From NCBI GenBank assembly GCA_010015585.1, contig ML975163.1: a DNA stretch of 64,000 nucleotides; one strand, written 5' to 3'. This stretch comes from Eremomyces bilateralis CBS 781.70 (Eukaryota). Under the pieces are notes generated by a model, which saw only the letters and a list, made by a program, of their open reading frames with translations, was not told the origin of the DNA and ran no database searches. The position numbers and the translations under genes were made by a program. The number at the start of each line of letters is the position of its first letter. The stretch's first letter is position 1. Below are positions 58,101-64,000 of this stretch, in pieces.

Positions 58101-61100
58101 ATCTATGATCCGTACGAACAATATATTGACATCCTACATCAACCCCGATCCCGTTCCCCAATCTAGACAATCTACCCAGCAACCCCTTTTCCATCCAACA
58201 TCCACCCCACGTCGTTAAAATCACGTTGCATCGTCAGTTCGCGGCCCTCACCAATCGCCAGGGTCGCCGGGTTAAAATAGTCCGCTCCCTGAATCTGTCG
58301 CGCTCTAGACCACGGACCCTCAACGTTGAGCAACCGCACATGCAACACCACGGCACGTACGGCTTCTTGACACTGCGCAACGCCAAAAAGGCAAGTCGCA
58401 CGAAGACACAAAGTTTATTTGATTATTATTTTTCCCGAATCAGTTCCATCCTCCTTATTTCTCATTTCATGCAGCATCGGACCCCCGTGCGGATGTAGAG
58501 ACTGCGCTGTGCGGAATTTGCGACCCCATAGGAGTTGATGACGAGAGCAAGTCGCTCGCTGCGATTCGTTCTGTCCTGCCGCTTTTTCGCTCCCACCACG
58601 CGATTCCTGAGGGCCGAATGCCGATCAGTTCATCGTTATAGATCACCCAGACACGATACCAATGCCATGCGACAACGTACGACTTGGCATCCGATTCCTC
58701 CATTCGGCGAATGGGTACGGGAGTGTTTAGGTCCTGGATGAGGTGGGGACGATAGTAAGAATAAAGAAAGCGATTCCGGAAACGGATTACTATTCCGCGA
58801 TCGTGCGGTGGGTGTCAGAGCTGGAAATCTGACACGGATGAAGTGGACACGCTCAAGATTATTTGTGCGTTCACAAATTTCGAGGATTTTCAGTTGAGGG
58901 TGTGGGATTCATTACCTATACGGATTACGGAGGTAGGAGGTCGCGAGAAACCGTATTCGTTCTCTTCGAAAGGTAAACATCACCACCTCGTACCTCCAGG
59001 CTGTCTTGTTGGGTCCTCGGGGTTCGCTCGGGCACTAGGTATCTAGGCGGCGGGCGGCGTCTCCCTAAGTCCGCGCCCGACTTCAGCCCTATACGCCCGC
59101 CATCGGTGACACCATTCGTCCGACTCCATCGCACCCCGGATCTTCACGCAATCAACCAGCACGATGCGTCGTATCCACGGTACCTATGTTTCAACTTTCA
59201 ATCGCTGCCATCGTGGCAAAACGATCTTCACGAGCAACGGCATCACAGCACGTTTTTACTCCGTGTAACAAATCGGCGCAATAAGGTCGTCTTGGTTCGG
59301 AGTTCGGTAATTTACTTGGTGCCCGGAATTGCTACTGCTGATGTAGGAGCGCGTTGGACGGGATGATGCTGACTTGGACTCCGGAGCGGCGTATTTGACA
59401 AAGCATCTGACTTGGTAACTATGGGACATCGAGGTGTCGAGGCAGGTCTGGAGATAAGTATCTTTCGACACCCGTGATGAAGAGCCAGGACCGTAATAGG
59501 CGAGTGGTAGCACCTCGCAAGTCACATCAGTAATCGCGAACAGTAGGGGTTACGACATGCGGCTTACCTCTCCTCGATGCCGCAACCTCGCCGTGTCGCA
59601 AGATTCCAAATTCTAGTTGCGCAGAACCACTCGAGATGATGCCGCTGCGTGCGGCGGGAGCAGGTATCTGTTGTGAGCCTACCTACTTCCTTGGTAGCCG
59701 AACGAATCTCACCGTCAAAGCCTACCGAGACGCTGTCGAAATAGAAGCCATTTCCCGTTCATGTGGGGGGGCTGGCCTCGATGCTGCAGCGGTGCGCTTC
59801 ATGGCCACGCGGGTGTCTGTGAGAATGGCAACAACGCTGACGAAGTCGCACCGAGCCGCCCGGTATGCTCGGGTGTGGGCCATGAACGGACCACTCATGG
59901 GATGAGCTTAATATTTGTTATTACAAGGAGGAGATTATTCATCCGCGCCGGACCATGTGGACTTGTGGGATGACTGTTTCCCCTTCCCTTCCAGCTTAGG
60001 TCTCTCAGTGATTCTTCGTCCTGCAGTTTCGATATGACTAGGGCCGTTTGCTTTGTTCGGGTTATGTGTCTATCGCCTATGTATAGCAAGTCAGTCCCCA
60101 GTCCTCTAGTCTCAGGGGAACCAGTCCCCAACCTCTACGGCCTTTGCTCGGTTGGATGCGGGTTGAGCCTTCTCCTCGTTGTACTCTGATCTGACAATGT
60201 TGCCTACGACGCGATTCTGAGGTCTATGGAGTATAGTGAATAGGGGAACATGGCTTGAAATAGAAGAAGTAGGTGCCCGCTTAGCGCTGAATGATAGCAC
60301 AGGCTTCCTCGATGGTAACCCACATCAATGACTAGTAATAAGCCTGAAGTCACACCGAGTGATAATATTGCAATGGGATGTGACTGTTTGGGGACCTAGG
60401 CGTCGTCCTAGCTGTATTTTGGTGTCCCCAAATACTGCGAAGAAGCCGATAGACTCGAGCCATTGCGTATCTCATCGATCTGGATACTCTTCGAAGGGTA
60501 TAGAAAGCCAAGAGTGCACCAGCTGCTTATTAGACATCAATACAAGCATGTTGTCGAATCAAGGCGTGAGTACAACACACAGCTAAAGTATGGGTACTGA
60601 CGGATTCGTGCATGTTATGAGCCAGAGACATGGTCGGCAAAGTCTGAGGCCAAGATGTTAGCTGTGTAGAAATATACTCGCATTCGAACCGTCAAATGGA
60701 GTGCCAACCTCAAGTCCGATCTTGGGCAGCCTGTGGACACTGGCCTAACCTCTCTTTCTGACCATGATGCCGGAGTTGATTGTTCAGACTTTTCCCGTCT
60801 TCCATTCCCTTGGTCCCATTGGAAAATCCTAGCCTCAATCTGAATGGAACAACATTTATTTTGTAAGGACCCATCAAAAATGATATCCTGCCATGAGAGA
60901 CATCTCACCCCATCACCACAGATCTAAAAAGATCTGCCAACTTGAATCGTGAGAGAATAACATACTACCTAAGCCGGCTAGCGTGAGGCAACACCGACCT
61001 CCTTCTAGCCTTGCGGAGTTTTGTCGCCTCACTCCGACCGCTTTTATGAGTGACCCTCACTGCGGGGCACATCTTCAAAAACCTTCCCACTTTCCACACC

Positions 61101-61130
61101 CAGTCGTCCTTTCGCAATTGTGCTGTAGCC

Positions 61131-62712
<1,582 letters not shown>

Positions 62713-62981
62713 GCGTCTGGTCCCGTCGACTCGTATTTTTGGAGGGCAATTGTGAACCATTGCATGTGGCCACTCCCGTGAATTCAGTACTACCGGACAC
62801 CAGTATTCCCGTCGATCATAAACGAAGAAAAATGACAGTCCAATGATCCATCAATATTCATCTTTGCAGTGTCATGAACACCAGGCCTACGTGGACATAG
62901 TTGAGGTTTCTCTCCAGCAAGACGGTGACGCGATCATTTGCGCCACTGGCTTAAATAGGTACTACAGAGATTGTAGATAGA

Positions 62982-63089
62982 ATGTTTATCAGATACCGTC
63001 GTAGAAATTATCAGCATCAGACTCCAACACCACACAGGGTTTGTGGAGCCTCTCAGTGCTTGACTCAAAACGAATCATCATGTAAACAT
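62982..63089 (-). ncRNA. snR79: Box C/D snoRNA, snR79-like (18S Cm1007-equivalent guide)
   Basis: Minus strand: 7-bp terminal stem ATGTTTA/TAAACAT, box C ATGATGA (63081-63075), D' CTGA (63056-63053), C' ATGCTGA (63017-63011) and box D CTGA (62992-62989). Guide CTACGACGGTAT is complementary to conserved 18S AUACCGUCGUAG; the D+5 rule gives the second C (yeast C1007, numbering from memory). Confidence 0.88.
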
Positions 63090-63210
63090 CTATCCCAACC
63101 CTCCAATTGCCAACGGCAAATTTTTCTGATCCGTCTCCTTCGACAGAGCCAGGCGTGCGCACCAAAGAGTTTGCGGTGCACACCCATCCGGATCGGTCAA
63201 AAGATAGAGA

Positions 63211-63698
63211 TCCCACAAACTCCTCGCGTCAAGAATAAGCCCCATCGAGTATCCCCACCCGCTGGATCATCTCCCTCAGTGAAGAGAAAGGTAGACCCAG
63301 CAGGCGCAGGCAATCGCATAACTGTGTAACTCGACGAATAGTAGAGCCCCCACCCACCGTATTCCACCATCTCATCCACACAGCCACCATGTCCCTCCTC
63401 CCATACCCGACCTCCACCGCACTGCGAGACACCGCTCGGCCCCTGGCCGTAGCCAGGAAGCTTCGCGGGCTACAGTGCAAGCGAGCGGCAGGGAGTGCAG
63501 ACGGAACATGGCGCGGGAACAAAGACGACAGGATGAGCGGAGGCATTGAGGTAAGCCGTGAAGCATGCTTCTATGGCGGCGCGTTTCCGCAAATCCAGCA
63601 CACGAGGCGCTGGGACATCCGGGGACTTTCTCCCAAAGTGCAGTGCCAGGTAGACAACGCACTTCGACTGCGATTCTTCGAGCGAGGAGTTTGTGGAA
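63211..63698 (-). ncRNA. NME1: RNase MRP RNA
   Basis: Minus strand: 17-bp P1 terminal helix (63682-63698 with 63211-63227, one G-U), P2 AATCGCA/TGCGATT (63675-63669 with 63318-63312), CR-I GAAAGTCCCC (63630-63621), CR-V GGGGCTTATTCT (63243-63232) forming P4, and CR-IV-like ACAGTTA just before the 3' strand of P2. Confidence 0.9.
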
Positions 63699-64000
63699 TG
63701 AAGAAGAAGAGGAGGAAGAAAGTTTTTGGCGGCGCGGAAACTTTTTTTGAGTGCGAATTGTAGCACGTGATCGCACTAGTGTTGGCGGTGCGTTACGGCG
63801 GACGAAGTAGTCCGAACGTGTCACTCATGTCGCAGCCAAGACTTTGGTGACTCAGGCTGTGAGGCATCCACTTACTAGCCTTCGCATCGAAGCTTCAACT
63901 GTACTGGCAGCCTATATCCTTTGTGATAGCTGCACCCCACACTTAAATACAATAGTCTCTACGGTCGAAGTCTGCTAGATCAATCTTACCCATTACCATT

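Follow-up and report, generated by a model that had tools for sequence, protein, structure and literature searches.

An RNase MRP RNA gene followed by a double-guide box C/D small nucleolar RNA in filamentous ascomycetes: conserved linkage and a possible shared precursor

What is known about the genes that surround an RNase MRP RNA gene in a fungus? The closest described case is that of Saccharomyces cerevisiae, where NME1 (YNCN0013W), the gene for the RNase MRP RNA, and SNR66 (YNCN0014W), the gene for a box C/D small nucleolar RNA (snoRNA), are annotated as direct neighbours on the Watson strand of chromosome XIV, between YNL025C and YNL024C-A (PMC9731477; here and below, what is quoted from the literature refers to excerpts of the respective sources). 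NME1 is transcribed by RNA polymerase II (Pol II), unlike human RMRP (PMC7277114), snR66 is a known substrate of the RNase III Rnt1p, and the two modifications relevant here are assigned to separate guides, Um2417 of 25S ribosomal RNA (rRNA) to snR66 and Cm1007 to snR79 (PMC8307265). Here we analyse a tandem of the same order in the filamentous ascomycete Eremomyces bilateralis CBS 781.70, contained in a 64,000-nt stretch of contig ML975163.1 (assembly GCA_010015585.1), which as a whole is referred to as the window. Near one end of the window, an RNase MRP RNA gene lies upstream and a box C/D snoRNA gene with two guides lies downstream, both on the minus strand, separated by a spacer of 133 nt (63089-63221). 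The corresponding distance between NME1 and SNR66 we take to be roughly 160 nt.

Further precedents exist for the individual parts of this arrangement. The two guide functions are found in Neurospora on two separate snoRNAs, both encoded on chromosome V: Nc CD2, which is intergenic and listed as homologous to the snR66 RNAs of S. cerevisiae and S. pombe, and in which the D' guide UAGAGUCAAGCU, followed by CUGA, is paired with 26S rRNA (5'-AGCUUGACUCUA-3') at Um2379; and Nc CD18, an intronic homologue of snR79 that ends in ...GACUACAACGGUAUCUGA and of which 5'-ACGGUAUCUGA-3' is paired with 18S rRNA at Cm1004 (PMC2780460). MRP is mentioned nowhere in that study (PMC2780460). Another snR79, that of Candida, resides in an intron of a 5'-untranslated region (PMC5033589). 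Polycistronic snoRNA precursors are standard in fungi (PMC5824354; PMC5033589), and one such cluster, snR77-snR73, is conserved in Ascomycota, while MRP, NME1, snR66 and snR79 do not occur in the main text of the respective paper (PMC5824354). Finally, Yarrowia possesses dicistronic genes that combine a transfer RNA (tRNA) with 5S rRNA (PMC2566860), and thus join two classes of stable RNA in one precursor.

The identity of the upstream gene in the window is clear. Scanning the 64 kb with Rfam yields the RNase MRP family RF00030 as the sole match at gathering level (67.3 bits against a gathering threshold of 50, E 1.5e-16), covering the full model from position 1 to 266 of 266. The resulting alignment contains both conserved motifs of this RNA, CR-I (GAAAGUCCCCGGA) and CR-V (AUGGGGCUUAUUCU), and in it the 5' strand of helix P1, CCUCGCUCG, pairs with the 3' strand UGACGCGAGG. 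The downstream gene encodes an RNA with a C box of the form RUGAUGA, a CUGA D box and a terminal stem, as is characteristic of box C/D snoRNAs. A reading made from the sequence alone had proposed two structured RNAs on the minus strand in close tandem, about 120 nt apart, with MRP RNA upstream and a complete C/D snoRNA downstream; apart from a slightly longer spacer, this agrees with what we find. It had also considered the open reading frames that cover both genes to be spurious. These frames, of 60-150 aa and on both strands, remain without support as proteins, as the five overlapping frames that were scanned gave no Pfam match at E<=0.01, and a protein-coding interpretation of the region was rejected. 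Of the two Rfam families named in the sequence-only reading, RNase_MRP exceeds its gathering threshold, whereas snR79 (RF01184) stays well below it.

Is the proximity of the two genes a coincidence? For an answer, the CR-V motif of MRP RNA (14 bases) alone was used to scan metagenome contigs, so that the snoRNA had no part in the query. The scan returned at least 119 loci; among the matches listed, three have the CR-I motif upstream and represent full RNase MRP RNA genes, L035 with 99.8 bits, L032 with 97.1 and L076 with 95.7. None of the other loci among the matches listed is an MRP gene, as judged by motif context (L081-L119 included) and, for ten of them, by Rfam; the candidate L106, whose match covers 47 nt at 19.6 bits, was rejected. 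When contigs of prokaryote genomes were scanned with a 19-base MRP motif, there was no match. All three metagenomic MRP genes are followed by a C/D snoRNA on the same strand, 86-161 nt past the MRP 3' end, in the same place and orientation and of the same kind as in the window, and as these loci are independent, the pairing is beyond chance. With MRP RNAs that are 57-69% identical, the four loci are not close relatives. Moreover, their protein-coding surroundings have changed: the downstream gene encodes an M24 peptidase in the window, a guanylate kinase in L076 and a SET-domain protein in L032, and in L035 a WD40 protein is encoded upstream. It is thus the RNA pair alone that is conserved as a unit. 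The MRP genes themselves vary in length, L032 having 602 nt and the others 437-467 nt, and expansion segments vary widely among these fungi.

The snoRNA likewise has a history that its guides help to trace. Its terminal stem covaries across the four loci (GUUUA/UAAAC, GUUCG/UGAAC, GUUCA/UGAAC and GGUCU/AGACC), and the element conserved in each of them is the D' guide, in which GAGUCAAGC and the CUGA after it do not vary among the loci; all four snoRNAs share the stretch (A)GAGUCAAGCA CUGA unchanged. L032, L035 and L076 share with Nc CD2 the D' guide UAGAGUCAAGC plus CUGA (PMC2780460), which can pair with the Neurospora 26S target over 11 contiguous bases; the window guide agrees at nine of these 11 positions and pairs with the same target over nine contiguous bases (GAGUCAAGC), followed by a U:U mismatch and two further pairs. 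Length and box layout of the window snoRNA are also similar to those of Nc CD2, which has 99 nt (PMC2780460). Judged by these sequence comparisons, the window D' guide is homologous to the guide of snR66 and Nc CD2. The D guide is of the other type: ACGGUAUCUGA of Nc CD18 equals the D guide of the window and of L032 (PMC2780460), ACGGUAU and the following CUGA are identical to Nc CD18, and the fifth base, G, stands opposite the C to be modified. Its core is common to the window snoRNA, Nc CD18 and snR79, which by comparison of the guides and by pairing with Neurospora rRNA makes it an snR79 guide in the functional sense. The window RNA thus differs from its counterparts in that it carries two guides, whereas the Neurospora guides sit on two separate snoRNAs (PMC2780460) and yeast snR66 has one assigned target, 18S Cm1007 being served by the separate snR79.

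The label "snR79-like" given in the sequence-only reading is accordingly valid for one guide and not for the family model. Even with permissive settings, RF01184 matches 62987..63085 with 19.3 bits against a gathering threshold of 55 (E 1.4), and C box and D guide account for essentially all of this match; the L032 snoRNA reaches 25.5 bits on the same model. As the element conserved in all four loci is the D' guide of the snR66 / Nc CD2 type, this guide would appear to define the gene, and the snoRNA is, on the evidence of the alignments, not simply a homologue of snR79. Only the window and L032 have an intact D guide; four of its 12 positions are changed in L076 and six of 12 in L035. The D guides of the latter two snoRNAs (L076:1029-1138, plus strand; L035:326-428, minus strand) look like decayed snR79-type copies, which points to a double-guide snoRNA in the ancestor shared by the four loci. 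The window, in turn, has UUUGAGUCAAGCA in its D' guide where L032, L035 and L076 have AUAGAGUCAAGCA. Through this change, the perfect match to 26S rRNA drops from 11 to nine bases, and the snoRNA acquires an internal T4 run. Decay of the U2417-type guide, with the 18S guide retained, may be under way in the window lineage. A faint Rfam match to sn2417 that straddles the MRP 3' end (63175-63225, minus strand) was discarded as chance: it has 14.5 bits against a threshold of 80 (E 2.8), no usable C or D boxes, and the aligned model consensus does not contain the window guide.

Between the two genes, the spacers of the four loci could not be aligned over their whole length; instead, they have three features in common. 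One is a short T run (T3-T5) 11-22 nt past the MRP 3' end. Another is a hairpin with a stem of 5-6 bp and the loop GUCGAA (GUCAUA in L032), for which 22 of 24 cells are paired and three of six pairs show a compensatory change; its covariation score was reached by two of 500 shuffles, and with the pairing slid out of register only 25-54% of the cells pair. The third is an outer helix, in which the block that follows the hairpin finds its best partner, in all four loci, in a block at spacer positions 17-34, after the T run: CGAUCCGG with ACGGAUCA in the window, CGGAUCUGU with CCAGGUUCA in L032, UUUGGGUCCAU with CUGGACUACAAG in L035 and CGGAUCUGA with CCAGAUUCU in L076. The 5' strand of this helix starts 17-26 nt past the MRP 3' end, and the module ends 21-53 nt before the snoRNA throughout. 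An independent alignment evaluated with RNAalifold recovers the hairpin, a middle helix and the outer helix, the last with pairing in 16 of 16 cells; of the 14 pairs predicted in total, five show compensatory changes. The minimum free energy (MFE) fold of the window spacer has -49.4 kcal/mol (z -2.8); the sequence of its middle hairpin is not seen to be conserved in L032, L035 and L076. This predicted module, which we regard as supported rather than established, would in all four loci offer a structured site, a covarying hairpin enclosed with an outer helix, that is able to serve as the target of an endonuclease.

The spacer is also represented in RNA. A single sequencing run covers the locus; its contig of 4551 nt lies on 60500-63590 without a mismatch and lacks five introns, four of the plus-strand GT..AG type and one CT..AC, and is thus RNA-derived. 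Its unbroken part reaches from the end of the convergent M24 gene over the snoRNA and the complete spacer into the MRP gene, of which it includes the 3' 369 nt. Since there is no splice joint between 62656 and 63590, an intronic origin of the snoRNA was rejected, in agreement with the earlier statement that no intron is evident around it; the neighbouring introns are, after all, removed from the very same contig.

Several lines of evidence therefore bear on the further proposal of the sequence-only reading that MRP RNA and snoRNA are cut from one precursor, and we lean towards a shared Pol II precursor as the explanation of the locus. Transcription by Pol II would start at the MRP promoter, some or all polymerases passing the short T run; the spacer would fold into the outer helix, the variable hairpin and the GUCGAA-loop hairpin; an endonuclease, most likely the RNase III orthologue of Rnt1p, would cut within this module; and 3'-to-5' trimming would then complete the MRP RNA, as 5'-to-3' trimming up to the small nucleolar ribonucleoprotein would complete the snoRNA. 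In favour of this course of events, order, strand and short spacing have been kept despite the turnover of the neighbouring genes, three of the four spacers (L032, L035 and L076) have no A/T-rich box, and the RNA cover of the spacer combines with the status of yeast snR66 as an RNase III substrate. As the 5' strand of the outer helix begins only 17-26 nt past the MRP RNA, a transcript with the spacer structure must start at or inside the MRP gene, and no room is left for a separate promoter outside it. A plausible place for the MRP promoter itself is marked by A/T-rich boxes, which precede the MRP 5' end by about 35-41 nt in all three loci for which upstream sequence is available, CAAAAAC at 63722-63728 (minus strand) in the window and, at about -41..-35, GAAAAAC in L035 and TAAATAA in L076; by their position, they are candidates for a TATA-like element. 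The proposal of a single precursor is thus plausible from conserved linkage, short spacers, covarying structure and RNA cover.

Several points count against a shared precursor. The contig is unstranded and joins genes of both strands, it leaves the first 98 nt of the MRP gene uncovered, and part of it might stem from antisense read-through of the convergent M24 gene, so that it is no proof of a single transcript. The spacer structure is drawn from four sequences only, and taken one by one, its outer-helix duplexes are not significant in energy, shuffled sequences being as low in 0.06-0.40 of cases. The signal for yeast Rnt1p is an AGNN tetraloop that caps a long stem, but the loop found here is a hexaloop, GUCGAA or GUCAUA. 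Most of all, the T runs that follow the MRP gene in all four loci (the T4 run of the window may be a weak terminator or a pause site) recall yeast, where a T tract after the MRP RNA is considered a terminator and this RNA becomes about 7 nt longer when Rex3 is missing (PMC12129344), and where NME1 and snR66 figure in a preprint as two distinct genes occupied by Pol II, as other yeast studies list them separately. These observations would fit two separate, tightly linked Pol II units, with the MRP gene ending at the T run, the snoRNA having a start of its own, and the folded spacer forming its 5' leader, to be cut by RNase III as in monocistronic yeast pre-snoRNAs. In the window, the snoRNA is even preceded, at about 35 nt, by an A-rich tract, CAGAAAAAUUUG, which makes a separate snoRNA promoter possible, as it lies at the same distance as the A-rich box of the MRP gene. 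The two boxes of the window, GAAAAAU (63117-63128) and CAAAAAC (63722-63728), are similar and lie about 35-40 nt upstream of snoRNA and MRP gene, respectively, and might be a duplicated promoter element, seen only in this genome among the four loci. However, a separate snoRNA promoter would come to lie inside the conserved 3' domain of the MRP RNA if it were to include the outer helix in its transcript, the box is missing from the other three spacers, which measure just 86-161 nt, and T4-T6 runs inside three of the MRP genes are evidently read through. Two independent units thus appear to us possible but doubtful.

The folded spacer could also be no more than a 3' trailer of the MRP precursor, with the snoRNA situated there for historical reasons and fed by unrelated transcription or by that of its antisense neighbour. 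The 3' hairpins of yeast small nuclear RNA precursors provide a comparison, the module does start directly after the MRP RNA, and an unstranded contig would be compatible with such an origin. Yet the module ends close to the snoRNA in each of the four loci, the snoRNA retains intact boxes, a covarying terminal stem and an invariant D' guide, and the linkage has outlasted changes of both flanking genes, which makes this a highly improbable explanation. Least credible of all, and hardly to be reckoned with, is a dicistron that RNA polymerase III (Pol III) transcribes, after the manner of the tRNA-snoRNA genes of plants or the tRNA-5S units of Yarrowia. It is true that human RMRP is a Pol III gene, although yeast NME1 is a Pol II gene (PMC7277114), and that the window MRP gene contains no run of four or more T residues. 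Against Pol III stand the T runs inside the other three MRP genes (T6 in L032; T5, T4 and T6 in L035; T4 and T4 in L076), of which those in L032:891-1492 and L035:590-1054, both on the minus strand, include runs of T5-T6, together with the T4-T5 runs in the spacers and the T4 run in the window snoRNA. Short T runs evidently fail to halt the polymerase of these MRP genes, and the pattern fits Pol II, as in yeast. The mixed dicistrons of other organisms remain similar in that two classes of stable RNA arise from one precursor (PMC2566860); they differ in being Pol III units that need a tRNA promoter and RNase P or RNase Z, whereas loci of the window type have T runs incompatible with Pol III.

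The coordinates of all features are collected in Table 1. The convergent neighbour, which the protein atlas also identifies as a eukaryotic M24 peptidase, has a peculiarity of its own: the introns at 62295-62353 and 62601-62656 lie inside its frame, are multiples of three in length and free of stop codons, so that the frame reads through them.

Table 1. Features of the RNase MRP RNA-snoRNA locus and its surroundings; positions are those of the window.
Feature	Position	Strand	Basis
RNase MRP RNA gene, 467 nt	63222..63688	-	RF00030; CR-I, CR-V
A-rich boxes, about -60..-54 and -40..-34 from the MRP 5' end	63722..63748	-	candidate TATA-like element
T4 run, 19-22 nt past the Rfam 3' end of MRP	63199..63202	-	sequence
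Outer helix, 5' strand CGAUCCGG	63188..63195	-	best duplex partner; RNAalifold
Variable middle hairpin, 10-bp stem	63155..63183	-	MFE fold
Conserved hairpin, 6-bp stem, loop GUCGAA (63139-63144)	63133..63150	-	alignment A2; RNAalifold
Outer helix, 3' strand CGGAUC	63128..63133	-	duplex search; RNAalifold
A-rich tract CAGAAAAAUUUG, about 35 nt upstream of the snoRNA, window only	63117..63128	-	sequence
Box C/D snoRNA, about 104 nt, two guides	62984..63088	-	boxes C, D', C', D and 5-bp terminal stem
snoRNA 5' stem GUUUA	63087-63083	-	
C box AUGAUGA	63081-63075	-	
D' guide UUCGUUUUGAGUCAAGCA, 18 nt, snR66 / Nc CD2 type (25S/26S U2417-equivalent)	63057-63074	-	
D' box CUGA	63056-63053	-	
C' box UGAUGC	63019-63014	-	
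D guide CUACGACGGUAU, snR79 / Nc CD18 type (18S C1007-equivalent)	62993-63004	-	
D box CUGA	62992-62989	-	
snoRNA 3' stem UAAAC	62988-62984	-	
Stretch covered unbroken by the RNA-derived contig	62656..63590	unstranded	contig
Convergent neighbour, M24 methionine-aminopeptidase-type gene (stop 62710-62712)	61627..62712	+	Pfam Peptidase_M24, E 2e-28
Introns	61170-61229, 61355-61428, 62295-62353, 62601-62656	+	GT..AG, contig
Intron of another gene	60643-60709	-	CT..AC, contig

How much of this is new? The sequence-only reading had set the tandem against budding yeast, where NME1 was thought to be a transcription unit of its own, and had seen in this a sign of novelty. The contrast fails, as NME1 is directly followed by SNR66 on the same strand: in yeast as in the window and in the three metagenomic loci among the matches listed, an MRP gene is followed by a C/D snoRNA with a U2417 guide. 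The arrangement is therefore old, already annotated and not unique to the window genome, and the locus is best explained as the filamentous-ascomycete form of the yeast NME1-SNR66 locus, with a lineage-specific second guide of the snR79 type. Polycistronic snoRNA precursors are equally known from fungi, and the tandem shares with them the common strand, short spacers without intervening promoters, the envisaged release by endo- and exonucleases and a gene order kept over long distances (PMC5824354). It differs from them in its first cistron, which is a catalytic MRP RNA of 437-602 nt instead of a snoRNA guide. Full-text searches, the scope of which did not extend to the supplements of the fungal snoRNAome survey, returned in the excerpts seen no description of an MRP-snoRNA unit or of NME1-SNR66 co-transcription. 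What is new, as far as these searches reach, is the conservation of the MRP-snoRNA pair in filamentous ascomycetes, its common spacer module and the double-guide snoRNA.

More tentatively, the scenario may be extended to the Ascomycota as a whole, including NME1-SNR66. The pair would then be made throughout from a single Pol II precursor, with a three-helix cleavage module in the spacer, and in the filamentous lineages would have started out with a double-guide snoRNA (25S U2417 plus 18S C1007), of which one guide or the other is being lost lineage by lineage. So broad a generalization is conceivable, and we put it forward with reserve.

For the annotation of fungal genomes, the locus has practical consequences. 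Current Rfam snoRNA models miss the window snoRNA (19 bits against 55), and its guide content alone would lead to its being mislabelled as snR79, so that synteny with the MRP RNA is the reliable anchor by which to annotate it. For the evolution of the guides, it shows two functions that are separate in yeast merged on one snoRNA and then decaying in different lineages. Beyond this, if the precursor is shared, rRNA cleavage and rRNA methylation would be coupled at their source: the supply of the catalytic RNA for pre-rRNA cutting and the supply of a guide for ribosome methylation would be linked, and this link would span fungi that have been separated for hundreds of millions of years.

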